64,000 nt of DNA from a virus: positions 1-64,000 of IMG/VR virus record IMGVR_UViG_3300036978_000319. One strand, written 5' to 3'. A program made the position numbers and the translations under genes. Positions within the stretch are counted from its first letter, which is position 1. The number at the start of each line of letters is the position of its first letter. The notes under the pieces are model-generated. The model was not told the DNA's origin and made no database searches. It saw only the letters and a list, made by a program, of their open reading frames with translations. Shown one piece after another: positions 1,194 to 20,517 of the stretch.

Positions 1194-1399
1194 TGAGGGA
1201 GATAGAGCAAGTCAGTGAGCAAGTCAATGAGCAAGTCAATAGGCAAGTCCATAGGCAAGTCAATTGGCAAGTCTATATGCAAGTCGATGGCCAAGTCTAT
1301 ATGCAAGTCCGTAGTCAAGTCCGTGGGCAAGTCAATGAGCAAGTCCATCGGCAAGTCTATAGTCAAGTCCAAAGTAACCTAACTAGAGGGAATCCATAA
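1193..1399 (+). CDS. QVxx tetrad-repeat mini-protein, array 1 copy A
   Basis: In-frame 12-bp CAAGTC-N6 repeats; TAATG stop/start overlaps at both ends. Confidence 0.65.
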   Translation: MREIEQVSEQVNEQVNRQVHRQVNWQVYMQVDGQVYMQVRSQVRGQVNEQVHRQVYSQVQSNLTRGNP

Positions 1400-1569
1400 T
1401 GAGGGAGATAGAGCAAGTCCGTGATCAAGTCTATAGGCAAGTCCATACCCAAGTCTATAGGCAAGTCCATACCCAAGTCAATGAGCAAGTCTATTGGCAA
1501 GTCCATGGGCAAGTCTATAGGCAGGTCTATTGGCAAGTCAAAGAAAACCTAACTAGAGGGAATCTATAA
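1399..1569 (+). CDS. QVxx tetrad-repeat mini-protein, array 1 copy B (not in ORF track)
   Basis: 56 aa: MREIEQVRDQVYRQVHTQVYRQVHTQVNEQVYWQVHGQVYRQVYWQVKENLTRGNL; paralog of 1193..1399. Confidence 0.6.
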   Translation: MREIEQVRDQVYRQVHTQVYRQVHTQVNEQVYWQVHGQVYRQVYWQVKENLTRGNL

Positions 1570-1756
1570 CCAGACTCATACAGACTATAGTCTGGATTAG
1601 AATTACTAGTATAAAGTGACACTTGTGCCATGAAGGTCCCATTATAAGAAAGGTAGTATAGTATGGCTAGCCGGTCTTTTTCCTGGCATGCCCCGCAAGG
1701 GTGCATTGGTAGACATAGAGACCCTTTCCCTAGGCCGGGTGGCATAGTGGTTACTG

Positions 1757-2683
1757 GGTCATATCTGGGTCACTATTTTAGGCCATATTTAGGCTATATC
1801 CGGGCCATTTGGTCACTATTTTAGGCTATTTAGTCACTATTTTAGGCCATATCTATGGCTAGCCGGGCTATATCTAGGCTATTTGGGCCATATTTAGGCC
1901 ATATCTATGGCTGGCAGGGCCAATTGGTCACTATTTTAGGCCATATCCGGGCTATTTAGGCCATATCCTGTCCATTTGGTCACTATTTTAGGCCATATCC
2001 GGGCTATTTGGTCCATATTTAGGCCATATCCGGGCTATATCTAGGCTATTTAGGCCATAACCTGTCCATTTGGTCACTATTTGGTCCATATCTAGGCTAT
2101 TTAGGCCATATTTAGGCCATAACCTGTCCATTTGGTCACTATTTGGTCCATATTTAGGCCATATCTATGGCTAGCCGGGCTATATCTAGGCTATTTAGGC
2201 CATATTTAGGCCATAGCCTGTCCATTTGGTCACTATTTAGGCCATATCCGGGCTATTTAGGCCATAGCCTGTCCATTTGGTCACTATTTGGCCCATAACC
2301 GGGCTATATCTAGGCTATTTAGGCCATATTTAGGCTATATCTAGGCTATTTAGGCCATATTTAGGCTATATCTAGGCTATTTAGGCCATATCTATGGCTA
2401 GCCGGGCTATTTAGGCCATATTTGGTCCATATCCGGGCTATTTAGGCCATAACCGGGCTATTTAGGCCATAACCGGGCTATATCCGGGCTATTTAGGCCA
2501 TAACCGGGCCATATCCGGGCTATATCTAGGCTATTTGGTCCATATCTATGGCTGGCAGGGCTATTAAGGCCATATTTAGGCCATAACCGGGCTATTTAGG
2601 CCATATCTATGGCTGGCAGGGCTATTAAGGCCATAACCGGGCTATTAAGGCCATAACCGGGCTATATCTATGGCTGGCAGGCC
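1757..2683. repeat. non-coding array of shuffled 9-11 bp units
   Basis: Units TATTTAGGC(CA), TATCCGGGC, TATCTAGGC, TAACCGGGC, TATCTATGGC, ATTTGGTCAC; no ORF of 60 aa or more in any frame. Confidence 0.95.
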
Positions 2684-2812
2684 TGTGGCAGGTGTGGCGT
2701 GATGGCCATATACCGCTGGATCCTAGTGGCAGATGCAGAATATATGTACGTTCATATTTTACTCACTAGGCTAATAGAGGCCGGGTGAATGTCAATGTGA
2801 CTGGGCGGCCAT

Positions 2813-4054: not shown

Positions 4055-4093
4055 CAATGAGCATGCTTAGGTCTCTAGATTCTCCTATGATAA

Positions 4094-4156
4094 GATTTAA
4101 CAATTCCTTAACATTGGGGCGGTACCAGCTCGCGTTTTATTGTTATATTTAACTAT
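4094..4156 (+). promoter_or_regulatory. tripartite early promoter-like element, copy 2
   Basis: Same 20-nt core, GGTAC at 4121, TATATTTA at 4144; upstream of sigma gene. Confidence 0.85.
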
Positions 4157-4194
4157 CAACAAACAAACTAACCAAAACTAACCAAACCAACATC

Positions 4195-4758
4195 ATGAAT
4201 ACTCTAACTTTCAAAACCATCGGCAAACTTAAGACCTCTACTAACCGGGTTGAGGCTAATATGAGACTCGTTGTCTCAATCGCCAAAAAGTACCAGGGAA
4301 TGGGCCTATCACTAGACGATCTTATTCAAGAGGGTGCTATCGGTCTTATCCAGGCTGACAAAAAGCATGATGAAAAGAAGGGTAAGTTTAGCTCCTATGC
4401 CTACCTATGGATTAAGGCTGTCATTACACGTGCTCTAAGCGAAAAGGGCAGAACGGTTCGGATCCCTTGCAGTCAAATCAAGAATACCGATGTTCATATT
4501 AAGACAAGTCAACTTGACTCAACGTATCAAGGAGTAGAGTCTCCGTCGGTCTACTCTGTACACGAGGACCAGGAACAAAAGAGAAAGATCCAAATGCTGC
4601 TTTCACGCCTTAAGCCGGCCCAGGTCTCAATCATTAAGCGTAAGTTTGGTATTGACTGCGAAGAGCAAGAGACCCGGGAAATTGCCGAGGACTTAGGTAT
4701 CACGGTTCAGGCTGTTAATAAGACGATCCGGGTAGCTATCGAAAAGATGTCAGCCTAG
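4195..4758 (+). CDS. truncated RpoD-type sigma70 factor (regions 2 and 4)
   Basis: [28 protein letters not shown]...RTVRIP region 2; C-terminal [17 protein letters not shown]. Confidence 0.9.
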
Positions 4759-4818
4759 TAAGAAGTCCCTATAATAGGAATCAGATTTAATAGTAAAACT
4801 TTAACTAATCATAAAAAT

Positions 4819-5070
4819 ATGAAAACAGAAATGAACATCAACAGATCACAAAAAGCCCAATCTCTATTAAGCGCTATTATGCAACGCTTGTGTATTCACT
4901 CAATGATAGTGTTGGCATGTTACCATATATGCAATACACTATTACTAAATGATGGATGGTTAGACATCGTATTTGCTATAGCCTGGAGTGGAAATGCCTT
5001 TTGGTTGCCTGACTACTTGGATTGGTTTGATGCACCGTGGGAAGGGAGTGAAAAGTGGAATTCAAAATAA
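4819..5070 (+). CDS. small membrane protein
   Basis: 83 aa, hydrophobic and Trp-rich. Confidence 0.5.
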   Translation: MKTEMNINRSQKAQSLLSAIMQRLCIHSMIVLACYHICNTLLLNDGWLDIVFAIAWSGNAFWLPDYLDWFDAPWEGSEKWNSK

Positions 5071-5133
5071 GATTTAACAATTCCTTAACATTGAGTGAGT
5101 ACCATTTCGTGTTTTATTGTTATATTTAACTAT
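5071..5133 (+). promoter_or_regulatory. tripartite early promoter-like element, copy 3
   Basis: Core at 5071, AGTAC at 5098, TATATTTA at 5121. Confidence 0.85.
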
Positions 5134-5153
5134 CAACTAACCAACTAACCAAA

Positions 5154-5990
5154 ATGCAAAAACTAGTAAGAATCAACCAAGTATCGTATGACAAGGACCT
5201 ATTCAAAGCATGGCAGCTTGGGTCGGCTGTGGATCAAATGTTTTCTGTTGGTGGCGGTATACCAAGAGCTACAAACTGGATGGTGACAGGAGATCCCGGT
5301 GTAGGCAAGTCAACTGTTATGTGTGACATTCTTGCTGATGCTGCAAAGAACGGGTCTAAGGTACTTTTTATTAGTGGAGAGATGAACCAGGTTGACCTCT
5401 ATCTTTATGTAGAGCGCTATCCTAAATTTGGAGCTCTTGACATCTTCTTTCCACAAGATGTTGATGATTGCCCAATGGAAGCAATTAGAGAGGTACTCAA
5501 TCAGGGCTGGGATATCGTAATGCTTGACAGTTTTGTTGAAGTTCAAGAAATCATTAAGGAGGCAGGTGGTATGTCAACTAAGGCAAGCGAAAAGTGGATG
5601 CTTGACCTAATGGCTGACCATAACGCAGGCAAGAACACTGGTAAGCATTATACCAGCTTTCTAAACATACAACAAATGACCAAAGGAGGTACATTCGTTG
5701 GCAGCAATCGACTTAAGCACATGACGACTGGTATGATGGAGATCCGCTTTGTTGATGAAAATGAAGAGGACCGTTACATTGTCTTTTCAAAGAATCGTCG
5801 TGGGCATGTAGGCAAGAGACTCTACTTTGATCTCTCAAGCCCAGAAAATGTCATCTATGACCAAGAGAGGTTCAAAAAGACAGAGGAACTTCATATGCTC
5901 AAAAAGCGAGAACGTCTAGAGATTAAGAATGGCACTGCTATGTTTGACGAGCTATTTAAGCTTACAAGCGATGAGACCGATGAAAATTAA
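5154..5990 (+). CDS. RadA/Sms-like RecA-fold ATPase (no Zn finger or Lon domain)
   Basis: Walker A GDPGVGKST, FISGEM, Walker B VMLDS, GSNRLKHM, KNRRG (cf. RadA KNRFG). Confidence 0.8.
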   Translation: MQKLVRINQVSYDKDLFKAWQLGSAVDQMFSVGGGIPRATNWMVTGDPGVGKSTVMCDILADAAKNGSKVLFISGEMNQVDLYLYVERYPKFGALDIFFPQDVDDCPMEAIREVLNQGWDIVMLDSFVEVQEIIKEAGGMSTKASEKWMLDLMADHNAGKNTGKHYTSFLNIQQMTKGGTFVGSNRLKHMTTGMMEIRFVDENEEDRYIVFSKNRRGHVGKRLYFDLSSPENVIYDQERFKKTEELHMLKKRERLEIKNGTAMFDELFKLTSDETDEN

Positions 5991-6067: not shown

Positions 6068-7210
6068 ATGCAATTTTTAAGTCAACAAGTTTTCAATGAA
6101 CGCGCACAAGTGGCCGCTACAACAACACCGATTCGTAAGAAGCTCACCTTCTCCGAACTATCAATCGTCGGTGCTGACCGAATCATGGTGGACGGTCAAT
6201 CAATTCAAATAACAGAGGCTGGGTTTAAGTCCCTTCTTGGACGTCTTAGAATCCCGCCGGCATTTGCCAAGAGATTTGGTGATGCCTGGGGTGAAGACGG
6301 ACTTAAGCAGCTACTTGAGATGGTGAAGGCCGGTCGTCTAGGTAAGACTGATCTTGAAGTGACCCTCTTGGCTGACCCAACTACCCGTAAAGTAGTTGAC
6401 TTCCTTCCCTCAACTGCAGCTCATATCTCAAATCAGAGCTTTGTTGAATTTGCTACTCGTATCATCGACCAATGGGGTCTTAACCCTACCCACTTTGGAA
6501 CAGACCCTCTCGGTGGAGTTCAGATCAATACTCTACATGATAGTCATGTGTTTAAGATCCCTGGTCTCACTGATGAAACCTTTAGAGCAGGCGTAAGTTT
6601 TTCTAACACGCCACAGCGTGGTCTTGAGGTGGTTCCCTTTACAGAACGTACTATCTGTGCAAATGGTATGATTATTCGTCTTGCTGATGATACGTTCCAA
6701 CTTAATCAGTTAACGCCTGATAAGATTAATGAGTTTAATGAAAGAATGTCTGATGCAGCCTATCTTGGCTTTCAGTCTCCCTCGCTGATTGAAAAGATCA
6801 GAAGAGCAAATGTCACCACTGCTAGTCTACTTGAGGTAAACCATGCAGCTATGACAATCCTTAATTCAAATAAGGGTATGAGCTGGGATCGCGTTAATCG
6901 TTACATCCCGGTTGACAGAATCAATCAGGCTTACTCAACGAGAGGAGTTGAGACTGAAGAGTTGTCAAAGGCACAAAAGCGAATTGCAAATAGTGGTATG
7001 ACAGTATGGGATGTTTGCAACGGTCTTACCAATTTTGCATCAAACGATCAGACTCAAATGACAGACTGGAGCCGCATGCAAGTTATGGGTGGTGCTGGCA
7101 ATCTTCTTAAGAAGGCTTTCTTTGATCGTGAAGCTGTTATTGGAGTAGATCCATTTGGAGGAGATCGTATACTTACAAATCGTCAAGCCGCAATTGCCCG
7201 CGGTGAATAA
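6068..7210 (+). CDS. DUF932-like phage protein
   Basis: GVSFSN...ERTICANGM and TVWDVCNGLTNFA patterns resemble DUF932; weaker promoter GTTTC-N18-TATATTTAG at 6003. Confidence 0.55.
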   Translation: MQFLSQQVFNERAQVAATTTPIRKKLTFSELSIVGADRIMVDGQSIQITEAGFKSLLGRLRIPPAFAKRFGDAWGEDGLKQLLEMVKAGRLGKTDLEVTLLADPTTRKVVDFLPSTAAHISNQSFVEFATRIIDQWGLNPTHFGTDPLGGVQINTLHDSHVFKIPGLTDETFRAGVSFSNTPQRGLEVVPFTERTICANGMIIRLADDTFQLNQLTPDKINEFNERMSDAAYLGFQSPSLIEKIRRANVTTASLLEVNHAAMTILNSNKGMSWDRVNRYIPVDRINQAYSTRGVETEELSKAQKRIANSGMTVWDVCNGLTNFASNDQTQMTDWSRMQVMGGAGNLLKKAFFDREAVIGVDPFGGDRILTNRQAAIARGE

Positions 7211-7250
7211 GTGAAGGCAGGTTTGGTTGGTTATAGCTGGTTCGCCAGTG

Positions 7251-7283
7251 AGGCAGAAGGGGTGGTTCCCTTCTGCCTTTTTT
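7251..7283 (+). terminator. rho-independent terminator
   Basis: AGGCAGAAGGG-GTGGTT-CCCTTCTGCCT followed by T run. Confidence 0.9.
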
Positions 7284-7296
7284 GTTTGTTGCTGAT

Positions 7297-7304
7297 GATA
7301 TATA
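7297..7304 (+). promoter_or_regulatory. GATATATA late-promoter-like motif (representative copy)
   Basis: Same octamer shortly upstream of starts at 22816, 32827, 39722, 40914, 43109, 51841, 55731 and on - strand at 16053-16060; GATAAATA at 28857, 31163, 56520. Confidence 0.75.
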
Positions 7305-7325
7305 AATCAAATTAAAAAATAAAGA

Positions 7326-8666
7326 ATGAAACAAGTACTATCATTTAGCGAATGGGTTATGACGGAAGGCATGACCGCTGGCGCAACCGGGATTGTTGAT
7401 CATAAGCTTTCACAAGCAGCCGATGTCATTGCCTCGTTTATGAATCGTAAGACTGGTCTTGGCTTTGCACAGTTTCCCTTCATGGTTTATGTTGACGGTG
7501 TTGCTGGAATTATGTATTATAGTAGTAAATCTGACGCCGCGTTTAGAGTAGGCTCAGGCACTGCTGGTACACTCGTAGGCAGCCTAGATTGGTTGGATCA
7601 ATTTTGGCAAGACAGTAGCACATTCACAATCACAAGCGATGAGTTTTCAATTGTGCAGTTAGTGGGAGAGTTTGCTAGACTTGCTCTTGATAAGAAGGCA
7701 GTTGATGCTGCTTTACAAGAGAGTATACTTGTCGAGAGTAAGGATGGGCTTCTTACACCTGAAGAGATAAAGATCATCTCTCGCAAACTAGATAGCGGAG
7801 AAAGCGCTATGGCAATCAGTAAAAGTCTTGGGGTAAGCTACGGTCAAATTCTTAAGGTTAAAAAGGGTGTAAAGGTTAAAGAAGATCGCTCACCAGTAGA
7901 GCAAGAAAATGAAATGACTCTTGCTGATAAGGTCCTATGGATGGAAGAGACAATGGAAGATGTCTATGAAATTACACGCCGTGTTGCCGCAGGTGCTTTC
8001 AATAGTCTATTCATTAGCGGCAGAGCAGGTACAGGTAAGACATTTAGTGTTGAGCGTGCAATGCATGACGAAGGCCTAGATGAAGGCGAAGACTGGATTA
8101 AGGTTAGTGGCTCGGTTAGTACTATTATGATGTATAAAGCTCTATATGACTACCGTAATAAGACTCTTGTCTTTGATGATGCCGATGCAGTCTTCTCTAA
8201 TGAGGATGGCAGAAACATTCTTAAGGCAGCTCTTGATACTAAAAAGATTCGTAAGATCTCATATATGAAAAAACTTGGTATGCTATATGACCCGGTTGAC
8301 TTTAGAGACAACCCGGAAGGAGAATTCAATGCACTTGAGAGTGGCTTAATACCTAACCAATTTGAGTTTGCAGGTCGGGTTATCTTTATTTCAAACCTTT
8401 CTAAAGATAAGGCTGACCCTGATGGCGCAATTCGCAGCCGAAGCATTCTTATAGATGTTAACCCTGATGATGCAACCTTAATGGAGCGTATGCGTCTTTT
8501 GCTTCCACACCTTGAACCAAAGGAACTCCCAATTGCTGATAAGGAAGAGATCTATGAGTTTATGAAGCAGGCACGTGACATCAGTATGAGGACTTTCGTT
8601 AAGGCGGCTGGGTTTAAGCTGGCGGGTCTTCCTAATTGGAAGAGAATGGCTAGCAGGTATCTTTAA
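7326..8666 (+). CDS. AAA-family ATPase with central HTH and CTS-like N-terminus
   Basis: Walker A GRAGTGKT, Walker B LVFDDAD, FISNL, AIRSRS; N-terminus MKQVLSFSEWVMTE. Confidence 0.8.
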   Translation: MKQVLSFSEWVMTEGMTAGATGIVDHKLSQAADVIASFMNRKTGLGFAQFPFMVYVDGVAGIMYYSSKSDAAFRVGSGTAGTLVGSLDWLDQFWQDSSTFTITSDEFSIVQLVGEFARLALDKKAVDAALQESILVESKDGLLTPEEIKIISRKLDSGESAMAISKSLGVSYGQILKVKKGVKVKEDRSPVEQENEMTLADKVLWMEETMEDVYEITRRVAAGAFNSLFISGRAGTGKTFSVERAMHDEGLDEGEDWIKVSGSVSTIMMYKALYDYRNKTLVFDDADAVFSNEDGRNILKAALDTKKIRKISYMKKLGMLYDPVDFRDNPEGEFNALESGLIPNQFEFAGRVIFISNLSKDKADPDGAIRSRSILIDVNPDDATLMERMRLLLPHLEPKELPIADKEEIYEFMKQARDISMRTFVKAAGFKLAGLPNWKRMASRYL

Positions 8667-8776
8667 GCCATGCATACCGTTAAGTCATATGTATTAGCTA
8701 TCATACTTTACCTGGCATTGCTATGGCTTAAGATTAGAAGAAGTGAGTCAGATTCACAATAAAATAAAATTAGATT

Positions 8777-9382
8777 ATGTACACAAGAGAACAAATTGAA
8801 GCTGCGGTAAAGGCTAAAGCATATGTTTGGTTTGATGACACCGCAAATAAAGGATACGACGTTAATATAGTTGGTGTCCGAAACAACTCACCGGAAGTAG
8901 GTGATAGAGTTACTAACTTATTTGACGACTATATGACAGTATCGTATAAGGTTGATGGAGTTTGGAAATTCGCTTCTTGGGCAATAACTACAGACCCAGG
9001 AACTAAAGCAGTTAAAGAGTATCACAATCCAAACGGAGTTGCTCGCGTTGTTCCTGGGCAATATAGAGGAATGTGGGCTGTTGGTTTACACCAAGGTAAA
9101 TACGAAGCAATGCGTCAGGTTAAACCAGTAAAAGTATATCGTGACAAGAACAAGGATATGACTTTTAATGAAACCGTTATAGAAGAAGGTATTTTTGGTA
9201 TTAATGGTCACCGATCAAATCCAACAACCGAATCTGCTTATGTAGAGAATTGGTCAGAAGGATGCCAGGTCTTTAAAAGAGTTAAAGACTTTAATGAATT
9301 TATGGCTATAATGAACAAATCAAAAGATATACATAGCAACTCTTTTACATATACCCTTTTAGAATCTACGGATATCAGATAA
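8777..9382 (+). CDS. YkuD/L,D-transpeptidase-fold cell-wall enzyme (endolysin candidate)
   Basis: GINGH-x14-SEGCQV fits the YkuD catalytic H-x14-17-[ST]xGC motif; no signal peptide. Confidence 0.65.
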   Translation: MYTREQIEAAVKAKAYVWFDDTANKGYDVNIVGVRNNSPEVGDRVTNLFDDYMTVSYKVDGVWKFASWAITTDPGTKAVKEYHNPNGVARVVPGQYRGMWAVGLHQGKYEAMRQVKPVKVYRDKNKDMTFNETVIEEGIFGINGHRSNPTTESAYVENWSEGCQVFKRVKDFNEFMAIMNKSKDIHSNSFTYTLLESTDIR

Positions 9383-9436
9383 GAATAAAGATACTGATAT
9401 GAAATCCCGGTTTGAACTCAAAATTAAGTACTTACT

Positions 9437-11365
9437 ATGAGTCAGTCATACTCAGAAATTTTGAGCGGGGTTTTAGTACATCAATCATCTAATGAACTTT
9501 TTTATCAAGGAAACACCACTGTAGGCGCTAAATCAGTAACCAAAGAAGTTGTTGATACGATAGGTGCTGATCGTGCATCTATTTGGTTGTTTAACGAAGA
9601 CCGAAGTTCTATTATATTACAGCAGCTATATGTCAAAGCAGAAGATACTTTCTATCAAGACATTTCACTTCATAAGTCTGATTTTGAACCATACTTTATT
9701 GCATTGGAAGATGACCCAATCATTATCGCTAATGACGCTCAAACACATCCAGCTACTTCGTGTTTTCTTGAAGGATATCTCAAACCACTTGGTGTAAAGT
9801 CAATGCTCGATGTACCTGTTTGGTATAGAGGATCACTTATTGGTGTTATCTGTATTGAAAGTTTAACACTGCGTTCTTGGAGGACTGAAGAAGTTCATTT
9901 TACTCAAATACTTTCGTCTCTATATTCATTTGCTTATTCTGTTAAAGAATCCAACAAGTTATCGAGTCAAATGATAGAACAAGAAAAATTTCTCGATACA
10001 TCAGCAATCATTTCAATGGCTGATTCTAAAGGAAAGATAACTTATGTCAATCAAAAATTTACCGATGTCTCTGGTTATTCTTTAGACGAAGTTATAGGTA
10101 AAGATCATAATATAGTAAATTCTGGAACTCATTCACGAGAGTTTTGGACTGATATGTATAAGACAGTCGTTAAAGACAAACGTATTTGGAATGCTATATG
10201 TACTAATCGAGCAAAGGATGGATCTCTATATTATGTAGATACTTTCATTAAATGTGATTTTAATGAAACCGGAGAACTTCAAAGGTTTATGTCAATACGT
10301 CAGGATGTTACTGACATAAAGAGAAAGGAGATAGAGATATCCAACAGGATGAATGCTATTAATCGATCAAACGCTGTTATAGAATTTGATTTAGATGGCA
10401 ATATAAAATTCGCAAACGATCTTTTCTTGAGTACGATGGGATATTCTTTACATGAGGAACTTGTCGGTAAACATCATAGCATATTTGTTGAGGAAGGAGT
10501 AAAGGAGACTGAAGAATATGCAAACTTTTGGAATACATTAAGAGAAGGGCAGTTCTATATGGGTGAAATTACCCGAAAGAAGAAAGACGGTTCTTTAATC
10601 TATTTACAGGCAACTTACAACCCTATCATAGGAGCTGATGGAAAACCTTATAGAGTAATGAAAATTGCTACTGACGTTACTCAAAGCTACAATCAACAGA
10701 GGGAGATTGAAAAGAAGAACACCTATCTTGAGCACGCCGCAAAGATTCTTCGTCATGATATGCATAGCGGAATTAACACGTATATGCCTAGAGGATTGAG
10801 TTCATTAGAACGAAGACTATCTGATGAACAGGCAAAGGAACTTAAGATTGATGCTCCTCTAAGAATGATTAAGGAAGGTCTAAGACATACACAAAAAGTT
10901 TACAAAGGAGTTTATGAATTTACAAATCTCGTAAAGAAGGATGTAGTTCTTAACAGAGAAGACCTAAATCTTAAGGACATACTCATAGACTATTTGTCCG
11001 CGACCGCTTATCGTCCACAGGTTGATATATCAGACATTGGTGAATATAGTGTTAATGAAGCACTCTTTTGCACTTCAATAGATAATCTTATTCGTAATGG
11101 TTTAAAGTATAATGATAGTTCAACAAAAAAGATAAAAATATATCGTATAGATGATATACTTTATGTTGAAGATAATGGTAGAGGATTAAGCCAAGAAGAG
11201 TTTGATTACTTATCTAAGCCATATACTCGTAAAGAAGGACAGCAAGAATCAGGAACTGGACTTGGGCTTAATATATGTATTGCAATTCTTGAAGAACATG
11301 GCTTCTTAATAACATGTAGCAAACTTTCCGAGGGTGGTACCCAAATGAAAATAAAACTAAAATAA
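9437..11365 (+). CDS. soluble GAF-PAS-PAS sensor histidine kinase
   Basis: GAF (ADRASIW, SMLDVPV), two PAS/PAC domains, H-box LRHDMHS, N-box DNLIRNGLKY, EDNGRG, GTGLGL; no TM segments. Confidence 0.92.
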   Translation: MSQSYSEILSGVLVHQSSNELFYQGNTTVGAKSVTKEVVDTIGADRASIWLFNEDRSSIILQQLYVKAEDTFYQDISLHKSDFEPYFIALEDDPIIIANDAQTHPATSCFLEGYLKPLGVKSMLDVPVWYRGSLIGVICIESLTLRSWRTEEVHFTQILSSLYSFAYSVKESNKLSSQMIEQEKFLDTSAIISMADSKGKITYVNQKFTDVSGYSLDEVIGKDHNIVNSGTHSREFWTDMYKTVVKDKRIWNAICTNRAKDGSLYYVDTFIKCDFNETGELQRFMSIRQDVTDIKRKEIEISNRMNAINRSNAVIEFDLDGNIKFANDLFLSTMGYSLHEELVGKHHSIFVEEGVKETEEYANFWNTLREGQFYMGEITRKKKDGSLIYLQATYNPIIGADGKPYRVMKIATDVTQSYNQQREIEKKNTYLEHAAKILRHDMHSGINTYMPRGLSSLERRLSDEQAKELKIDAPLRMIKEGLRHTQKVYKGVYEFTNLVKKDVVLNREDLNLKDILIDYLSATAYRPQVDISDIGEYSVNEALFCTSIDNLIRNGLKYNDSSTKKIKIYRIDDILYVEDNGRGLSQEEFDYLSKPYTRKEGQQESGTGLGLNICIAILEEHGFLITCSKLSEGGTQMKIKLK

Positions 11366-11376
11366 AGATAATTTGA

Positions 11377-11808
11377 ATGATTGATTCAATTTTACTCGTA
11401 GACGATGAGAGTTTATTTCACTTAGTATTTGAAGACGCATGCAGTCTTCTTGACATCTCGCTTTCTCTTGAAAGTATTGATAGCTCAGATGAAGCTGCTA
11501 AACTTTTTGAAGGTTGGCAACAGGATAATGACGGAAAGCCAGAATGTGTTTTTGTAGATCTTAACATAATTGGTTCTTCATATGACGGAATTGAATTAAT
11601 ACGTAAGATAAATTTTGAGTACGGTAACAATGTGGTTATTGGAATCATATCATCATCTAATGAATCAGAAGAACAGGCAAAAGCAGTTAAAGCAGGAGCT
11701 CAGTTTTGGATAATCAAATCGGATGATATTGAACCAAGATTAGAAGACTTCAAAAAAGACTTTGCAGGTTACAAAAACAGAACTGCTTCGTTTAAGATTT
11801 ATAGATAA
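11377..11808 (+). CDS. single-domain response regulator (receiver only)
   Basis: ILLVDD, VFVDLN phosphoacceptor, DGIEL, ISSS, WIIK; no output domain. Confidence 0.9.
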   Translation: MIDSILLVDDESLFHLVFEDACSLLDISLSLESIDSSDEAAKLFEGWQQDNDGKPECVFVDLNIIGSSYDGIELIRKINFEYGNNVVIGIISSSNESEEQAKAVKAGAQFWIIKSDDIEPRLEDFKKDFAGYKNRTASFKIYR

Positions 11809-12386
11809 TGAAAGTAACTAAAGAGGTTAGAGATTTTTTACTCAAGGTTCAAAAAACTAAAAGAGTTGCTATTGAAGGTAATCTTTTAAAAGTTATAGAA
11901 CCAGAAGAAGGTGATACTGAATTTGCCACCTACATTTCGACTGCTTTAGAAAAAGATAAAGATGGCAGAAAAAAGCGTCTAGAAGTTACTAAACAGGTGC
12001 AAGAAAGAAATCGAGAATTATTAGAATCTGAAGATAAAAATCTTCGCGTAAACGAAGATCTTAAAATTGCTCTTCAAGAAGCAGAAAAATCTAAAACAGA
12101 AGCATTAGCTGCAAAGGATATGGCTCTGAATGATTTGGATATCATTCAAAAAAAATCACAAACCGAGCTTATAAGTACAATAGTGAAAGTTGCTTTGCTT
12201 GTGATTCTTAGTGTTGGGGCTATAACTACTTTAATGTATGCAATCGCAATGATTACTAATAAAGATACCCAGATAATTGGATCTACTTGGTCTAATATGT
12301 TTGGCATCCTTTTAACCAATGCATTTTCTATTGTAGGAACTATTATGGGTGTAAAATACGCATCTGAAAATAAAAATAACGATTAG
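11808..12386 (+). CDS. coiled-coil protein with two C-terminal TM helices (holin-like candidate)
   Basis: Charged helical N-terminus, two hydrophobic segments, short charged tail; TAATG-coupled to the regulator. Confidence 0.6.
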   Translation: MKVTKEVRDFLLKVQKTKRVAIEGNLLKVIEPEEGDTEFATYISTALEKDKDGRKKRLEVTKQVQERNRELLESEDKNLRVNEDLKIALQEAEKSKTEALAAKDMALNDLDIIQKKSQTELISTIVKVALLVILSVGAITTLMYAIAMITNKDTQIIGSTWSNMFGILLTNAFSIVGTIMGVKYASENKNND

Positions 12387-12463
12387 ACAAATCGAGTCAG
12401 ATGCACGATAATTAGAGTGCTTGTCTATGTTTCATTTTAACATAGTGTTGTTACCTTTTCTGT

Positions 12464-12637
12464 ATGGATCCTATTTACACGGCAGCATATATCTTGACTG
12501 GCATCCTAGTTAGTCTGTTTATTGATGCGATCTTGTGGGCAGGTAAACTAACGCCGCTCACTAATTGGCAAAAGTCTTTTGCTATTCTGCTTTGGCCAAT
12601 AATACTCTTAAATTTGTATCTCAATGACAACGATTGA
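12464..12637 (+). CDS. small two-TM membrane protein (not in ORF track)
   Basis: 57 aa MDPIYTAAYILTGILVSLFID...AILLWPIILLNL; promoter-like GTTTC-N18-TACCTTTT at 12429. Confidence 0.5.
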   Translation: MDPIYTAAYILTGILVSLFIDAILWAGKLTPLTNWQKSFAILLWPIILLNLYLNDND

Positions 12638-13031
12638 AGTTGGCAGATGCGGTGAGTATAGTAAAGATGAGTGCTACACAATAGAACTATCAGACTTCAC
12701 TCAACCTAAGTTTGGTCATATCCGCACTCTTATCACAATAGCCGCATACCATCTAGGTGATAGTGTACTTAGAGGATCTATAGGACATCCTCATGCAGAC
12801 TGCACCGATGAAGACTACTTAAGCATGCCATGTGATAGTGAGACACCCTTTACAATCTCTAATGTGCATATGGGGCCTGGGAGCAAGTGCTGGGGGACTG
12901 TTAGGTTTACCGATACACCAGTTGGTAAAAGAGCAAGACTGATTTACATGCAGGGTGGCAGGTTTAGTGTTAGGTCGGTTGATAGAGGCAGCGCGGTTGA
13001 AATAGTAACATGGGACCTAGTTGAGAGGTGA
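12624..13031 (+). CDS. minimal T4 gp21-like prohead protease paralog (tentative)
   Basis: GSIGHP, DTPVGK, FSVRS, TWDLV in the order of the gp21-family motifs GELxHP, TPxG, SSRG, TxDxV. Confidence 0.45.
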   Translation: MTTIEVGRCGEYSKDECYTIELSDFTQPKFGHIRTLITIAAYHLGDSVLRGSIGHPHADCTDEDYLSMPCDSETPFTISNVHMGPGSKCWGTVRFTDTPVGKRARLIYMQGGRFSVRSVDRGSAVEIVTWDLVER

Positions 13032-13062
13032 TGATTATATTTAACTATCAATAAACAAAAGA

Positions 13063-13533
13063 ATGCAAAAAGATACTGTCATCTTTGACCTAGACGGAAC
13101 ACTTGCTCTGATTGATGTACGTAGAGCACTTTCAACTAAGCCTAATGGTAAGATCAATTGGGGTATATTCTTTGACCCATCTAACATCACGCTAGATAGG
13201 CCAAACGATCCTGTCATTACTACGGCTAACATCCTTAAGACGGCCGGGTATAAAATCGTCATTTTTTCCGGTCGTAGCCAAGCCACTCAAGATGCCACTC
13301 AGGACTGGCTTGCCCTACACGGAGTGGTGTATGATCAACTTGTTATGAGACCTACCACCGCCGGCCTGGCTCATATGCCTGACAACGATCTTAAGCAGAT
13401 GTGGCTTGACGAGTACTTTCCTGGAGATCAAAGGAACCGCATCATGTGTATCTATGATGATCGTGATCAAGTTGTAAAGATGTGGAGAGACAATGGTCTT
13501 ACATGTATGCAAGTTGCACCGGGGAATTTTTAG
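13063..13533 (+). CDS. HAD phosphatase, T4 PseT 3'-phosphatase-like
   Basis: IFDLDGTLA, FSGR, MRP, YDDRDQVVKMWR, QVAPGNF. Confidence 0.88.
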   Translation: MQKDTVIFDLDGTLALIDVRRALSTKPNGKINWGIFFDPSNITLDRPNDPVITTANILKTAGYKIVIFSGRSQATQDATQDWLALHGVVYDQLVMRPTTAGLAHMPDNDLKQMWLDEYFPGDQRNRIMCIYDDRDQVVKMWRDNGLTCMQVAPGNF

Positions 13534-13557
13534 GAATAAATAGAATAGATAATAATT

Positions 13558-13701
13558 ATGGCTAAGAATACAGTTAAGAGAATCCGCGCTCATCAGTTGG
13601 ACAGGATAGATGATGCCGAGACTATTCGGTTTAAGAAACCTAAAAAAACTCGTCCTAAGATTGAGAGACCTCATAAAGAGTGGGATGACGACGAGGAATG
13701 A
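13558..13701 (+). CDS. small basic/acidic protein (not in ORF track)
   Basis: 47 aa MAKNTVKRIRAHQLDRIDDAETIRFKKPKKTRPKIERPHKEWDDDEE. Confidence 0.45.
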   Translation: MAKNTVKRIRAHQLDRIDDAETIRFKKPKKTRPKIERPHKEWDDDEE

Positions 13702-13762
13702 TTTAACAATTCCTTAACACTGGGGTGGTACCAGCTGAGAAACATTGTTTATATTTAACTAT
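13700..13762 (+). promoter_or_regulatory. tripartite early promoter-like element, copy 4
   Basis: Core at 13700, GGTAC at 13727, TATATTTA at 13750. Confidence 0.85.
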
Positions 13763-13779
13763 AGATAGACCAGTCGTAA

Positions 13780-14427
13780 ATGAGTATCAATAACATTGAA
13801 CAGGTAAAGACACTCCTTAGGTTTGACAGTCCTGATGACTTTTATCACCTGCAGATTCTTAAGCGTAAGAAAGAGAATCCTGAACTAGGCTCAAACTCAC
13901 GTGTCATTAAGACCTACTATGTCTCATCACCCGAGTATCTTGAGGCACGCATGCCGGAGATTATTAGCTTGTGTGACTTTTCAAATGCGCGGGCATGTAT
14001 TAATCTTAACCGCCGCTCATTTGAAAAGATGGCCTATCATACCCTAAAGAAGATCACTGATCAAATTATGAACCGTGACTTTGCCTCCGTGCGTAAGGCT
14101 TATGAAAGTGCATGCGGATCCCAGATGAATGAGTCTGACAAAAGGTGGGTCCTTGATGTTGACTGGGTTGACTGGGGTCTTAGTGATGGCTGGGATGTTG
14201 GTCAAAACACATTGAAGATAAAAAGAGATCAATTAATCAATAAGATCATCAAAGATGTTCAGACATGCGTTGCTGATACAGGTCGTGATGACACGGTTTG
14301 GACTCTGCCTACTAAGAACGGTATGCATATCATTACCCGGCCTTTTAATCCAACAGCCTTTTTTGGTAATGTTTGGCACAAGGTGGTCATTCAAAAGAAC
14401 AACCCAACAATACTCTACATACCATAA
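13780..14427 (+). CDS. phage protein with AEP/prim-pol-like motifs
   Basis: RWVLDVD and TKNGMHII resemble AEP motifs I and II. Confidence 0.5.
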   Translation: MSINNIEQVKTLLRFDSPDDFYHLQILKRKKENPELGSNSRVIKTYYVSSPEYLEARMPEIISLCDFSNARACINLNRRSFEKMAYHTLKKITDQIMNRDFASVRKAYESACGSQMNESDKRWVLDVDWVDWGLSDGWDVGQNTLKIKRDQLINKIIKDVQTCVADTGRDDTVWTLPTKNGMHIITRPFNPTAFFGNVWHKVVIQKNNPTILYIP

Positions 14428-14473
14428 GTACATACATTTAATCTTATCGAGTATTCACTTAATATATAAGTAT

Positions 14474-14986
14474 ATGATAAAGAAAATTATTGTTGCCGTT
14501 GCAGTGTTTCTTGCCGTGCTATTAATCACAAACACGGTATCGGAATCTTCGGTTAGAGAATACCCAGATCTATGTATTGATGACTCTGATGTTGTACTAA
14601 GGGTAAGGAAGAACGGCAGAATTGATAGTCTTGATGAACTTATTGCTGCACTAATTCAGGTTGAGAGCTCCGGGCGAAATGATGTGATTGGAGACAGTCA
14701 TATGGGTGCGCCTTCAGTAGGATGCCTGCAGATTAGACCAATTATGCTAAGGGAGGTTAATAACATCCTGGCTAAAAAGAGTGGTGGAGTAGGGTATGCA
14801 ATGAAAGACCGCACTAACCGTAATAAGTCAATCTCAATGTTTCGGACATGGGCTGCTAAACATCATAAGTCAGACTCGTTTGAAAAGATTGCTCGTAACT
14901 GGAATGGAGGGCCTTTAGGCTATACAAAAACTAGTACTGAACCATATTGGGAGCGTGTCCAAACCTATGCAAAGAAAAGGTTATAG
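14474..14986 (+). CDS. lysozyme-fold lytic transglycosylase with N-terminal signal/anchor
   Basis: ALIQVESSG, GCLQI, WNGGP; start moved from 14255 to MIKKIIVAV, after AATATATA. Confidence 0.8.
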   Translation: MIKKIIVAVAVFLAVLLITNTVSESSVREYPDLCIDDSDVVLRVRKNGRIDSLDELIAALIQVESSGRNDVIGDSHMGAPSVGCLQIRPIMLREVNNILAKKSGGVGYAMKDRTNRNKSISMFRTWAAKHHKSDSFEKIARNWNGGPLGYTKTSTEPYWERVQTYAKKRL

Positions 14987-14990
14987 GATC

Positions 14991-15455
14991 TTATCTAAAG
15001 TCACTAAACTTTGGTAAGCCAGCGTTCTGCTTCTCCAACTCATTTCTAAGATAGTGTTTAGCAGTTACCATGTACTCTTTAGCAAGAACTATCTTTGACT
15101 GCCACCAGTGTGGGAAGTCAATCTCTTGACCAGACTGTTCCAATTGTGATAACATTTGCTCAAGATCAGCTGCATATCTTGAGATGGTCATAAGATCACT
15201 TGCCATCATACCAGCTTCATCATCAGTATGACCAAGATCTAGGTCTTGCCCTTCGGCCACACTTGGCTTAAGTTTATCCCAATGAGGACTACCAACTGAT
15301 TTACGAGTTGGATAAACGTCATAGCCTTGTCTTTCAGGCGAATCGTATGCATTAGAATTCCCGCCTGCCTGGCTGTCCCAGAAACTTTTGAAGTCACTGA
15401 TGGTACCCATATAGTAGCGAATTCGCTCCAGCTCTTCTCCCTGTTGTGTTGTCAT
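14991..15455 (-). CDS. phage hypothetical protein (possible head-associated)
   Basis: EAGMMASDL...PHWWQSKIVLAKEY helical domain familiar from large myoviruses. Confidence 0.65.
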   Translation of the reverse strand: MTTQQGEELERIRYYMGTISDFKSFWDSQAGGNSNAYDSPERQGYDVYPTRKSVGSPHWDKLKPSVAEGQDLDLGHTDDEAGMMASDLMTISRYAADLEQMLSQLEQSGQEIDFPHWWQSKIVLAKEYMVTAKHYLRNELEKQNAGLPKFSDFR

Positions 15456-15727
15456 TTCTTAAACTTTTCTCTTAACCTATGCAGTTCAACCCTAATCTTA
15501 AGACGCTCTTCATCAAGCTTGTCCAGCCTCATTAGGAATTCATATCTCTTAATTGCATAATTGTCACCTCTTGTCTGGGCATCTTTATATCGCCTTAAGT
15601 TGGTTTGAATCCTGTCACTAAGTCTCTTGCTAGTTTCGCCTGGACTAAACTCATACTTGCCGGCTTCATACAAATGAAACTCATTAAAATTAAGTATCTC
15701 CATTTGCATTGCCTTTATGCCTTTCAT
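15452..15727 (-). CDS. hypothetical protein with CTS-like motif
   Basis: MEILNFNEFHLYE; start may be the internal Met. Confidence 0.6.
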   Translation of the reverse strand: MKGIKAMQMEILNFNEFHLYEAGKYEFSPGETSKRLSDRIQTNLRRYKDAQTRGDNYAIKRYEFLMRLDKLDEERLKIRVELHRLREKFKK

Positions 15728-16022
15728 CTATCTTACTACAAACAGCCTTTTTGGCCTCTTCTATGTAGTCATCACCCTTATGAGTAGGGTCGTCATCACC
15801 CTCATACAGTTTGGCTTCTCTAGCCGCAATTGTACTAATCTGGTCCATGTGATATGCCATTGGCTTCATGCTATACCCGGTAGTTGGGATTGATCCGGCT
15901 GCCATGTTAGGTATTTGCACGGCAGGACCAAACCCAGCAAGCATAAGCTCCTCGGTAAGAAAGTCATTAAATGAAGGTATATTGGCAGTTGCACCAGTCT
16001 TTTTATTTAGGCTATGTTTCAT
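15690..16022 (-). CDS. hypothetical protein with CTS-like motif
   Basis: IPSFNDFLTEE; GATATATA on - strand at 16053-16060. Confidence 0.6.
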   Translation of the reverse strand: MKHSLNKKTGATANIPSFNDFLTEELMLAGFGPAVQIPNMAAGSIPTTGYSMKPMAYHMDQISTIAAREAKLYEGDDDPTHKGDDYIEEAKKAVCSKIDERHKGNANGDT

Positions 16023-16077
16023 ATGAGTCTTACTTATGTTATATTTCTAAAATATATATCATAGATCATCATACATC

Positions 16078-16293
16078 ATGTCAGACTATTATCGCTCGGC
16101 CTCATTTAAGAAGTTTATTGAGGGCGATATGCCTAAAATTGCAGAGGCTCTTGTTCGTATTTCAAAGCAGTTAGAACTTCTTAATGAACGGGAAGAACGC
16201 CGGTTTAAGTTAGATGAAAGGCTAACCATTACTAAAATTAAGTCACAAGTAAAAGAACTAAATGAAAGCAAAAGAACTGCACAAGATAGCTAA
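16078..16293 (+). CDS. hypothetical coiled-coil protein
   Basis: 71 aa, first of an overlapping operon. Confidence 0.6.
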   Translation: MSDYYRSASFKKFIEGDMPKIAEALVRISKQLELLNEREERRFKLDERLTITKIKSQVKELNESKRTAQDS

Positions 16294-16531
16294 GTCAGAG
16301 TTTATTGAACTCCTTTGCTCAGGTGCTATGGTTTATGCTAAGAAGGATAGGTCCTGGCAAAAGCAGCATCTTACGGTAGATAATGCTAAGGATCCGTGGT
16401 TCTTTACGTGGACAGCCGACGGCAACAAAGCCACGGCCAAGTCTACTATTGGGATCATTATTAAAACCCAGCTTGAGAGTTGGTGTATAGCAAGAGAAAA
16501 CGAAGGTTGTTCATTTTATAAGACGGCATGA
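16262..16531 (+). CDS. hypothetical protein
   Basis: 89 aa, overlaps neighbours. Confidence 0.55.
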   Translation: MKAKELHKIAKSEFIELLCSGAMVYAKKDRSWQKQHLTVDNAKDPWFFTWTADGNKATAKSTIGIIIKTQLESWCIARENEGCSFYKTA

Positions 16532-16872
16532 ACTCTTTTGGCTATACATGGCTATTCCTGCTGCTTGCACAGGTTTTAGTCTGGTTACAACTCAATGGTC
16601 AGTTTGTGTGGCCTTGGTTTAAGAACAACACAACTCTAACTGCAGTTCTGTTTGCCATTCCAATCTCACTTTTGTTTACTCACTATCAAAAGCATGCATA
16701 TGTAATTTTTGGCCAGTCTCTTTGGTCGATTCGGCTCTTTGGGTTTGGTATTGGTATGATCATCTTTTTTATAATGACTCTTATCTTTAGAGAGGAAAGT
16801 CTTAACCTAAAGAATGCACTCTGCATTGGCCTATCAGCCGGAATTGTTCTTATTCAAGTATTTGTAAAATGA
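16528..16872 (+). CDS. four-TM small membrane protein (SMR/DMT-like topology)
   Basis: Four hydrophobic segments in 114 aa; ATGA overlaps. Confidence 0.65.
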   Translation: MNSFGYTWLFLLLAQVLVWLQLNGQFVWPWFKNNTTLTAVLFAIPISLLFTHYQKHAYVIFGQSLWSIRLFGFGIGMIIFFIMTLIFREESLNLKNALCIGLSAGIVLIQVFVK

Positions 16873-17910: not shown

Positions 17911-18086
17911 AAGAAGTACTTGAATTTATATTTAGCAGCTGGGTACACTATCTAGGCACTCTCGTTATGCTGCTTGTGATAAGCAAATGGCGCCTAGTGA
18001 AGATTGTTAACCAGGGAGATGATGGAATCATTGATAAGCTGGCCGCAATCGGAAGGGCTAAGCAGAGTGACTCTCCGTCTGAATGA
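17907..18086 (+). CDS. small membrane protein (not in ORF track)
   Basis: 59 aa MKEVLEFIFSSWVHYLGTLVMLLVISKW...; ATGA overlaps at both ends. Confidence 0.6.
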   Translation: MKEVLEFIFSSWVHYLGTLVMLLVISKWRLVKIVNQGDDGIIDKLAAIGRAKQSDSPSE

Positions 18087-19326
18087 TACTACAAGACATC
18101 CTACCACATCTCAAAGAAGCCCTACATACCAATCAGTTCCTGGAGGGTGGCGCCATTCTTGGTGCCTTGGCTGCTATTGCTCATGGGATAAAGAGTCTGA
18201 TCGTCTTCCTGGTCAATCGTGTTATGCGGGTCATCACCTATCATTCGGTCTTCCAGGAGCACTCATTTACCTTCAATGCAGTCTCTCACATGATTGCAAC
18301 TAAATATAGCGATAAGCCAAGGAGTGTTGAGGTGCAAAGCAGGAAGAGCGATAAGGGCCGCTACAATACGATGATGCCGGTTGATGATTCATTTGTCATT
18401 TGGCATGGCATAGTGCCAATCATAGTGCAGTCGAGCACTCGCCAGATGGAGAATGCTGGCTCTGATGGCAAGCCACTCCACCGGACAATCTCACTTACCA
18501 CATGGTTTTTTAGAGCTCGTCTACATGCCTTAGTTGAGGATGCAGCCAATGCATGGCAACTCTCATGTGATGCAGAGGATTTGGGTTGGATTTGGATCTC
18601 AAACGATCGAGGCTGGACGAGAGCGAGCACAGTGCCTAATCGGCCTATCTCAACCGTCATTGGGCCTGCGGCTACTAAAGCATATTCGGACCTATACGAG
18701 TTTATTCAACAGCGTGAGTGGTATGGGAAGAAGGGATTGGCCTATAAGCGTGGCTATCTCCTTTGGGGACCACCTGGCACTGGTAAGACCAGTCTCTGTA
18801 AGGCCTTGGCTAGTGAGTTTGGTCTTGACATTTGTGTACTCAACCTGGCCTCTCTAACTGATGAAAGCGCAGTGAGTGTTATGAGTGAACTGGGTCAGAT
18901 TGGTAGCCAAAGGCCTAAGATCCTTTTAATCGAAGATATTGACTCCTATGTTGATGGTCGGACTGTCAAGAAGAAGGACTTGCGCTTCTCAACACTGCTT
19001 AATATCTTTGATGGGATCAGTTCTCAAGATGGCACCATTCTCATCATCACCACCAATCACTACCAAAACTTGGACCCTGCTCTGATTAGGCCGGGTCGTG
19101 TAGACCTGCAATTGGAGGTTGGTCTGCCGGAATCAGCCGAGATCAAAGCCTATTTAGAACTATTTTATGGCCATCCAATTGAGGGGGTTGATTTTAGTGG
19201 AGTCTCAATGTCAATGGTACAAGAGACGTGTGTCAGCAATAAACATAACGCAACCGAATGCATACAATCACTTAAAGAGCACTGCAATCAAAAGAGCTAA
19301 GCAGAGTGACTCTCCATTTGAATGAT
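18045..19326 (+). repeat. 43-bp imperfect direct repeats flanking the BCS1-like ATPase gene
   Basis: 18045-18087 vs 19284-19326, sharing an identical 20-nt core GCTAAGCAGAGTGACTCTCC. Confidence 0.85.
18083..19300 (+). CDS. BCS1-like AAA ATPase with N-terminal TM
   Basis: YKRGYLLWGPPGTGKTS, LLIEDID, LLNIFDG, TTNH, LDPALIRPGRVD. Confidence 0.88.
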   Translation: MILQDILPHLKEALHTNQFLEGGAILGALAAIAHGIKSLIVFLVNRVMRVITYHSVFQEHSFTFNAVSHMIATKYSDKPRSVEVQSRKSDKGRYNTMMPVDDSFVIWHGIVPIIVQSSTRQMENAGSDGKPLHRTISLTTWFFRARLHALVEDAANAWQLSCDAEDLGWIWISNDRGWTRASTVPNRPISTVIGPAATKAYSDLYEFIQQREWYGKKGLAYKRGYLLWGPPGTGKTSLCKALASEFGLDICVLNLASLTDESAVSVMSELGQIGSQRPKILLIEDIDSYVDGRTVKKKDLRFSTLLNIFDGISSQDGTILIITTNHYQNLDPALIRPGRVDLQLEVGLPESAEIKAYLELFYGHPIEGVDFSGVSMSMVQETCVSNKHNATECIQSLKEHCNQKS

Positions 19327-19386
19327 TTAACAATTCCTTAACATTGAGGCGGTACTGGTTAGAAAATTTTAGTTATATTTAACTAT
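19324..19386 (+). promoter_or_regulatory. tripartite early promoter-like element, copy 5
   Basis: Core at 19324, GGTAC at 19351, TATATTTA at 19374. Confidence 0.85.
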
Positions 19387-19408
19387 CAACAAACTAAACC
19401 ATACCACC

Positions 19409-20498: not shown

Positions 20499-20517
20499 AA
20501 CCATCAAACAAACCATT

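Follow-up and report, generated by a model that had tools for sequence, protein, structure and literature searches.

Can a phage read the state of its host through a phosphorelay of its own, and convert that signal into a change in the timing of lysis? This question is raised by a four-gene island in the virus record IMGVR_UViG_3300036978_000319. The record is a single 78.5-kb sequence classed as linear, and the stretch of DNA analyzed here, termed the window, is its first 64 kb (64,000 nucleotides, nt). CheckV estimates the record to be ~29% complete; it is therefore a fragment of a ~270 kb phage, and its source is a large (jumbo-lineage) uncultured freshwater phage. The island consists of four intact plus-strand open reading frames (ORFs). 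These are ORF1 at 8777–9382 (201 amino acids, aa), a soluble sensor histidine kinase at 9437–11365 (642 aa), a stand-alone receiver at 11377–11808 (143 aa), and ORF4 at 11808–12386 (192 aa), a protein with two transmembrane (TM) segments that is termed the hairpin below. An earlier, sequence-only reading had proposed all four genes as a sensor-controlled lysis cassette. Based on the comparisons described here, the island is a discrete insertion, and its last three genes very probably form a functional, phage-specific relay with the hairpin as the output.

The composition of the island sets it apart from the surrounding genome. GC content is 0.33–0.37 over 9001–12500 compared to 0.40–0.45 in the flanks, and GC at third codon positions (GC3) is 0.20–0.28 in the four genes compared to 0.36–0.50 in their neighbors. 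With an overall GC of 0.342, the island is the minimum among 3.6-kb segments of the 78.5-kb record (mean 0.428, standard deviation 0.021), about four standard deviations below the mean. The sequence-only reading had noted both this AT-rich codon usage and a bounding direct repeat, and both observations hold. The repeat is 31 nt long, with a left copy at 8732–8762 and a right copy at 12381–12411, both on the plus strand. The copies are identical at 25 of 31 positions, and only ~0.011 such pairs would be expected by chance in 5.2 kb.

This repeat marks the exact ends of an indel. A 6.5-kb metagenome contig, L217, is ~93% identical to the window on both sides and has an empty site, with a single copy of the 31-mer (2053–2083) and nothing between. 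L217 1–2083 aligns to window 6681–8762, and L217 2053–6479 aligns to window 12381–16816. The inserted block is 3,618 bp of unique sequence (8763–12380, plus strand), or 3,649 bp when one repeat copy is counted. The left copy forms the last 31 nt, including the stop codon, of a native 30-aa single-TM ORF (8670–8762, plus strand; hydrophobic segment at residues 2–22), which has an 80%-identical homolog at the L217 empty site and matches no Pfam or PHROG family. The right copy supplies the last codon and TAG stop of ORF4, which ends in ENKNS-stop in its nearest relatives and here reads ENKNND before running into the repeat. Behind it lies a native 57-aa membrane ORF (12464–12637, plus strand) that is 89% identical in L217. 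A 9-nt core, GAGTCAGAT, is identical in the left, right, and L217 copies of the 31-mer. The L217 31-mer shares positions 9, 12, and 13 with the left copy and positions 8 and 27 with the right one, as would be expected if recombination had taken place in the core, by short-homology integration of a circular or linear donor or, equally, by the reverse deletion.

The direction of the event can be approached through relatives of the flanking AAA gene (7326–8666). Among 87 loci with a homolog of this gene and at least 4 kb downstream, none contains any of the four island genes (0/87), and parsimony therefore favors insertion over deletion. Where the AAA gene is 63–73% identical (L220, L225, L231, L232, L279), a homolog of the 57-aa ORF lies 100–260 bp behind it; this ORF directly follows either the small single-TM ORF or the AAA gene itself in relatives. 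The phages that host the nearest cassettes elsewhere have flanks with a GC of 0.29–0.34, like the island and unlike this genome, and the best explanation is that the block came from an AT-rich phage gene pool. Both junctions are bridged by contigs of two other studies, from sediment and lake water, so the filled structure is not an assembly artifact. No contig skipping the island was seen in the four sequencing runs examined. The ORF list and Pfam reveal no recombinase among the island's four ORFs, and a search for the 31-mer, allowing up to 7 mismatches in 3.6 Mb of related loci, returned only L217 and no attachment site common to carriers. By these alignments, 8763–12380 is a discrete, recently inserted accessory cassette at a 31-bp site that ends a small membrane ORF.

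Two other places in the window are of note. A diverged direct repeat (50 nt, 84% identical) at 18045–18094 and 19284–19333 brackets a 405-aa AAA-like gene (18083–19300). This gene starts within the first copy and stops within the second, which repeats the pattern of the island, where an inserted gene ends in a copy of the sequence before it. In addition, 360 bp at window 4757–5117, with an 83-aa ORF (4819–5070), correspond to 227 bp at 597–824 of contig L218, which is 93% identical; here, too, a short segment has been replaced between close relatives.

Not all of the island travels as one unit. Queried with the kinase, IMG/VR yielded more than 590 matches, and synteny was counted in the best 80 loci. 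Almost without exception in these loci, homologs of the kinase, receiver, and hairpin are contiguous and co-oriented, while their flanks are unrelated to the window. Identity to the window proteins is 61–81% for the kinase, 75–94% for the receiver, and 42–85% for the hairpin. Receiver and hairpin genes are 0–8 nt apart in 76 loci and the pair is never split; in the island they overlap as TAATG, as had been read from the sequence. Between kinase and receiver, 10/76 loci hold more than 300 nt of inserted sequence, in many cases a second kinase. By contrast with the proposal of a single four-gene unit, only 4/31 lineages have ORF1 within three genes of the trio (loci dereplicated at 90% kinase identity), with varying position and orientation. 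The conserved unit, judged by this synteny, is the kinase-receiver-hairpin trio and not all four genes. As a separate observation, the loci with a second kinase paralog or other ORF between kinase and receiver are L073–L076, L091, L108, L129, L126, L131, and L067.

The receiver matches the Pfam Response_reg model at 37.8 bits (cut-off 30.2) and has no other domain. Residues D9, D10, D61, S92/S93, and K114 are invariant in 46 unique homologs, which come from viral loci with unrelated flanks. A phmmer search against the PDB matched only de novo designed proteins. By its domain content and conserved residues, the receiver qualifies as a CheY-like single-domain response regulator without an output domain.

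The kinase contains a GAF domain (residues 33–164), two PAS domains (PAS1, ~189–290; PAS2, ~313–416), a dimerization and histidine phosphotransfer domain with H440, and a catalytic and ATP-binding domain. Pfam recognizes GAF, both PAS domains, and HATPase_c (48 bits); its HisKA model does not reach E 0.01, and PDB entry 8f71 aligns over residues 423–627. H440 (in RHDMHSG), N550/N554, the DxGxG at 579–583, and the GxG at 608–610 are invariant in 61 unique homologs, and these H, N, G1, and G2 boxes place the protein among the class I (HisKA-type) kinases as far as sequence motifs can. Hydropathy reveals no hydrophobic or TM segment. The sequence-only reading of an intact two-component pair with a soluble kinase is thus upheld by invariant catalytic residues in both partners. 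The GAF domain is missing from about half of the related kinases.

What the kinase might sense is suggested by PAS1. Its best PDB match is the FAD-binding PAS-A domain of MmoS (3ewk; E 7e-27), followed by Aer and NifL PAS1, in agreement with the flavin type assigned earlier, and NCBIfam ranks NifL TIGR02938 first for the kinase (E 1e-36, below its cut-off). In Aer, the pocket residues include H53, R57, M69, W70 (which stacks on the adenine), N85, and R115 (PMC9668731). The equivalents of Aer H53, M69, N85, and R115 are kinase H224, M240, N257, and R288, each of which is kept in 55/61 relatives, and the equivalent of R57 is Asn, as in MmoS. Because the pocket residues are kept but the adenine-stacking Trp is replaced by Tyr241, a flavin cofactor in PAS1 is no more than plausible. 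PAS2 has no LOV cysteine motif. Its PDB matches, which are limited to MmoS PAS-B in an alignment of the tandem PAS domains and to weakly scoring LOV proteins, are uninformative and do not bear on the BdlA type proposed earlier. Only for PAS1 is a redox-sensing role plausible.

The hairpin is the least familiar member of the trio. Its AlphaFold2 model (mean predicted local distance difference test score, pLDDT, 91), together with the alignment, predicts an N-terminal helical module (residues 5–29), then a continuous helix (37–150) that becomes TM1, a tight turn, and TM2 (154–189). Hydropathy likewise gives two hydrophobic segments, and the cytoplasmic part is ~120 aa. TM2 is the most conserved part of the protein (consensus WSNLFGILLTNSFSIIGTIMGVKYA), with small or polar residues at about every fourth position. 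No Pfam, PHROG, NCBIfam, or PADLOC family and no Foldseek fold match was found, and the ESM Atlas returned only unnamed viral clusters, the nearest of which are 100% viral. At 192 aa, with ~120 aa predicted in the cytoplasm and no holin family, ORF4 is not a typical holin, and its earlier description as holin-like is not sustained.

Natural gene fusions point to the role of each part of this protein. An exhaustive HMMER search with the hairpin gave 210 representative clusters, in some of which the C-terminal coiled coil and hairpin are fused directly to GAF (P0134), PAS-PAS (P0161), or PAS (P0159, P0149). The PAS-PAS-hairpin fusion was scanned further, in 80 full-length loci from 34 lineages, and no receiver gene or kinase catalytic domain was found near it in any of them (0/80). 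The N-terminal module is absent from these 80 sensor-fused loci and present in 77/77 hairpins beside a receiver gene. Because sensors replace the module exactly when the receiver is absent, the hairpin is best understood as the output and the N-terminal module as the input for the receiver's signal. The earlier proposal of receiver-to-membrane-protein wiring gains from this and from the unbroken gene pair; its docking site does not, as the domain swaps suggest docking of the receiver on the small N-terminal module and not on the coiled coil.

Several other architectures were noted in the family. In P0241 (337 aa) and P0223, the N-terminal module is fused to a HisKA-HATPase core with no membrane hairpin, and the module may be a general receiver-responsive input domain. 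P0234 contains an N-terminal fragment of the hairpin family followed by an I-TevI-type DNA-binding domain, which hints at homing-endonuclease activity around the cassettes. Fusions to FecCD (P0205) and to an RNA polymerase domain (P0176) look like chimeric gene calls and were set aside.

ORF1 appears to be a protein of a different association. It is a predicted cytoplasmic, YkuD-fold Cys/His peptidase-like protein (phrog_3000) with an AlphaFold2 model of pLDDT 86. A VIA-align comparison of this model with 48,161 chains gave 20 top matches that were all of YkuD fold (Z 9.1–5.5; next Z 3.4). The L,D-carboxypeptidases Pgp2 (Z 9.1), Csd6 (8.8), and Bd1075 (8.6) rank best, and L,D-transpeptidases, DpaA, and Tlde1a rank after them; Foldseek agrees weakly (probability 0.9–0.98, E ~1e-2). 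Residues H145, S160, E161, G162, and C163, the last four forming the (S/T)xGC motif (SEGC163), are invariant in 32 homologs, in line with the YkuD His/Cys motif claimed earlier. However, no Pfam family is matched at E ≤0.01, including the YkuD model, and no NCBIfam family is matched, making ORF1 a YkuD relative at the level of fold only. It has no TM segment and no signal peptide.

More than 7,900 homologs of ORF1 exist, some at 91–99% identity, and none carries a Pfam domain. Homologs of 40–46% identity occur in cultured phages of Bacteroides (DAC16 group, crAss002, SJC03) and Pseudoalteromonas. The same domain forms the C-terminal part of the endolysin phrog_33083, which begins with a GH24 lysozyme. 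Among 80 loci retrieved with ORF1 as the query, a GH19/GH24 endolysin adjoins in 35, a small TM gene adjoins in 14, and the trio is present in only ~8. Since ORF1 is found mostly with GH19/GH24 endolysins that have no kinase beside them, and seldom with the trio, it is best regarded as an accessory cell-wall peptidase of lysis cassettes, apart from the signaling unit. Its access to the wall probably depends on a holin.

Lysis genes are also the recurrent neighbors of the trio. Its commonest neighbor is an endolysin with PG_binding_1 and GH19 domains, and GH24 lysozymes and a Pam3-type holin recur as well. A GH19/GH24 endolysin lies within three genes of the trio in 17/31 lineages and is adjacent in 11/31. 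For the fused form, an endolysin lies within 2 kb in 20/29 lineages and within 40 nt in 7, mostly co-oriented and downstream, and contigs from metagenome-assembled genomes (MAGs) have the fused hairpin, then a small TM gene, then GH19. In lineage L134–136, the order is small TM gene, GH24, ORF1, small ORF, kinase, receiver, and hairpin, and the island looks like the distal part of a cassette of this type. These neighborhoods support a statistical link between the trio and lysis genes in relatives. This part of the earlier lysis proposal is borne out by gene order, and an effect on lysis timing itself would be a prediction from it.

It is useful to ask whether these genes belong to phages at all. 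A hairpin search of 185,579 species genomes gave 8 matches, all on MAG contigs. These contigs are assigned to eight phyla and contain either the trio or the fusion, together with lysis genes; given this spread and content, they are most likely mis-binned phage DNA. The island gene families are, on this evidence, phage-restricted and not host-derived, and a host-locus origin, which the sequence-only reading had named as a possible refutation, was rejected: the hairpin is essentially absent from bacterial genomes, and its 8 matches are all on phage-like contigs. No homologs of the hairpin or receiver were found in 50,697 GenBank phage records. A Gemmatimonadota MAG contig, L303 (GC 0.66), carries the same trio. 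The trio therefore occurs in phages with GC from 0.28 to 0.66, and presumably in very different hosts. Identity as a defence system was also considered and rejected, as none of the four island proteins matches the PADLOC models (e.g., Detocs). The stretch itself is found in sequencing runs of 17 studies of freshwater, sediment, estuary, and wastewater. One freshwater-sediment RNA library contains a 489-nt kinase contig with two differences from the window, and another library contains a 92%-identical kinase contig; these do not cover the native flanks, which DNA runs cover evenly.

From these observations we infer the following mechanism. The soluble kinase would read the cytoplasm through its GAF and flavin-type PAS domains, with redox or energy state or a small metabolite as the signal. 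It would then autophosphorylate on H440 and pass the phosphate to D61 of the stand-alone receiver, which in its phosphorylated form would bind the small N-terminal module of the hairpin. The signal would run down the long helix to the two-TM hairpin, where the conserved polar TM2 would act in the membrane. The most likely output is that holin triggering is advanced or delayed; the hairpin would then be a regulator of the pro-holin or antiholin-like type, and burst timing would track the physiology of the host. The complete chain, from cytoplasmic signal through kinase, receiver, and hairpin to shifted lysis timing, is slightly favored over its absence, and it is held with distinctly less confidence than the relay itself.

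Several points weigh against this mechanism. The hairpin matches no holin or antiholin family in Pfam or PHROG, and the same cassettes contain other, small TM proteins, which may be the actual holins. Neither the small TM ORFs flanking the island nor the small TM neighbors in relatives match a holin family. There is no GH19/GH24 gene within 8 kb in 12–14/31 trio lineages, and the genes may lie side by side because they belong to a common late or accessory region, without sharing a function. In the 78.5-kb record, no endolysin (GH24, GH19, Amidase_2, or Peptidase_M15_4 models, and tblastn with neighbor endolysins) and no recognizable holin was found, and ORF1 is the only lysis-type gene close to the hairpin here; as the record is only 29% complete, the missing endolysin says nothing about the whole phage. 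On the sensory side, the equivalent of the FAD-adenine-stacking W70 of Aer is Tyr in 54/61 relatives as well as here. Transcription is no more than weakly hinted at, since the evidence consists of RNA-library contigs and DNA carry-over is possible. 

Three other explanations were weighed. The relay may be real, with the hairpin as its output, and yet act on the membrane in some way other than lysis, such as superinfection exclusion, modulation of membrane potential or transport in the course of host takeover, or a step of membrane-associated assembly. The lack of a holin family fits this explanation, as do the ~40% of trio lineages without a recognizable endolysin within 8 kb and the position of the cassette here amid genes of replication and nucleotide metabolism (AAA ATPase, PNKP phosphatase, ligase). 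Against it, endolysin adjacency is far above that of random placement in genomes of 200–300 genes and is seen independently in both the trio and the fusion architecture, and ORF1, which arrived on the same block, is an endolysin companion. A role outside lysis is thus regarded as unlikely, though it is the strongest of the alternatives.

Somewhat less probable still is that the hairpin is a mere anchor or scaffold that holds kinase and receiver at the membrane, while the receiver's true target would belong to the host, for example a two-component pathway, the motor, or a protease adaptor. Single-domain receivers such as CheY, DivK, and CpdR often have multiple partners, and the fusion of the N-terminal module to a kinase core in P0241 means that this module may serve other outputs. 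However, sensor-hairpin fusions drop the kinase and receiver and yet keep the hairpin, which makes no sense for a mere anchor, and the polar TM2 is the most conserved part of the protein, unlike a passive anchor. It is very improbable that the block is a selfish or decaying passenger without a role in the phage, possibly an unexpressed recent copy of a host locus. Its recent insertion and foreign composition, and the existence of a near-identical phage (L217) that lives without it, would suit a passenger; the four intact ORFs with invariant catalytic residues, the near absence of the hairpin (the protein on which that search was run) from bacterial genomes, the same filled junctions in samples of other studies, and the kinase contigs in RNA libraries would not. 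A relay that acts through the hairpin on lysis timing remains the preferred reading.

If this reading is correct, it would add a new regulatory layer to phage biology. The timing of lysis sets burst size and phage fitness, and, T4-type lysis inhibition aside, the general view is that phages depend on a holin clock and not on active sensing. The trio would be compact and portable, a unit for turning a cytoplasmic signal into an event at the membrane, and the relay would be widespread in freshwater phages. A still broader view is offered tentatively, with somewhat less than even confidence: thousands of uncultured large phages would carry a self-contained redox or energy phosphorelay with a membrane-hairpin lysis regulator of a new class, which moves as a cassette via short-homology sites and allows phages to time their burst by host physiology. 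The empty-site contig L217 and the evidence for a mobile cassette are new here. No earlier evidence for a mobile cassette is as clear as the filled and empty sites in these 93%-identical phages, which also provide a natural pair with and without the system that can be used for fitness comparison. No published account of a phage with such a histidine kinase or two-component system was found in the full-text literature, which was incompletely covered; a survey of jumbo phages mentions only a divergent receiver outside kinase systems (PMC7824862).

The remaining features of the region concern its neighborhood. Among the products of genes near the island are a DnaB/KaiC-like ATPase, an AAA ATPase (phrog_1250), a PNKP-type phosphatase, a DNA ligase, and a baseplate wedge protein. 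A promoter and terminator scan of 8400–12800 gave sites no more numerous than in shuffled sequence. A promoter-like element of ~88 nt (TTAACA-N5-TTAACA and TATATTTAAC) lies upstream of several genes, at 315–402, 4090–4177, 5067–5154, 19320–19407, and 20432–20519, with partial copies near 13019 and 13733 and a matching copy at 3365–3439 of L217. Window 1146–2700 contains dense non-coding arrays with periodic repeats of 11–12 nt and 20–31 nt (words of the CAAGTC and GGCCATA/GGCTAT types).

The cassette can be compared with several known systems of phages and bacteria. In T4 lysis inhibition, which involves holin T and the antiholins RI and RIII, a periplasmic antiholin senses superinfection. The likeness would be that a phage encodes lysis timing in response to a sensed condition via membrane lysis proteins; unlike the cassette, the T4 system lacks a kinase, a receiver, and any PAS/GAF sensor, and its proteins are unrelated in sequence. 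In Firmicutes, the LytSR system with LrgAB/CidAB ties a two-component system to holin-like and antiholin-like proteins and lysis. There, a polytopic membrane sensor, LytS, is paired with a LytTR transcription factor, LytR, that acts at the level of expression. The cassette would share with LytSR the tie between a two-component system and membrane lysis proteins, but its kinase is soluble and without a TM segment, its receiver has no DNA-binding or output domain, and its control would be post-translational. T4-type phages also contain repeat-flanked mobile gene cassettes, termed PeSL modules, which consist of a promoter plus stem-loop and vary among close relatives. The island resembles them in its short flanking direct repeats and in that its accessory genes are present in some close relatives and absent from others; unlike PeSL modules, its repeat is the coding 3′ end of the preceding gene, and the search of other carriers revealed no common site.

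At the level of single proteins, ORF1 resembles Pgp2, Csd6, and Bd1075 (PDB 6xj7, 4xzz, 7o21) in its predicted fold (Z 8.6–9.1) and conserved His...Cys pair. It differs from them in its low identity (13–16%), the missing Pfam YkuD match and signal peptide, and its encoding by a phage, beside endolysins. PAS1 resembles the flavin PAS sensors MmoS, NifL, and Aer (PDB 3ewk, 2gj3, 8dik; PMC9668731) in sequence and in its equivalents of H53, M69, N85, and R115, while its adenine-stacking residue is Tyr and the downstream signaling of the cassette differs. Parallels to the proposed signal flow are the CheA-CheY-FliM and DivJ/PleC-DivK-DivL pathways, in which a kinase likewise phosphorylates a receiver-only protein that acts by binding a partner protein and not DNA. 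Unlike those of CheY and DivK, the pathway proposed here would be entirely virus-encoded, and its partner is a coiled-coil two-TM hairpin that is found only in phages and has no homology to FliM or DivL.

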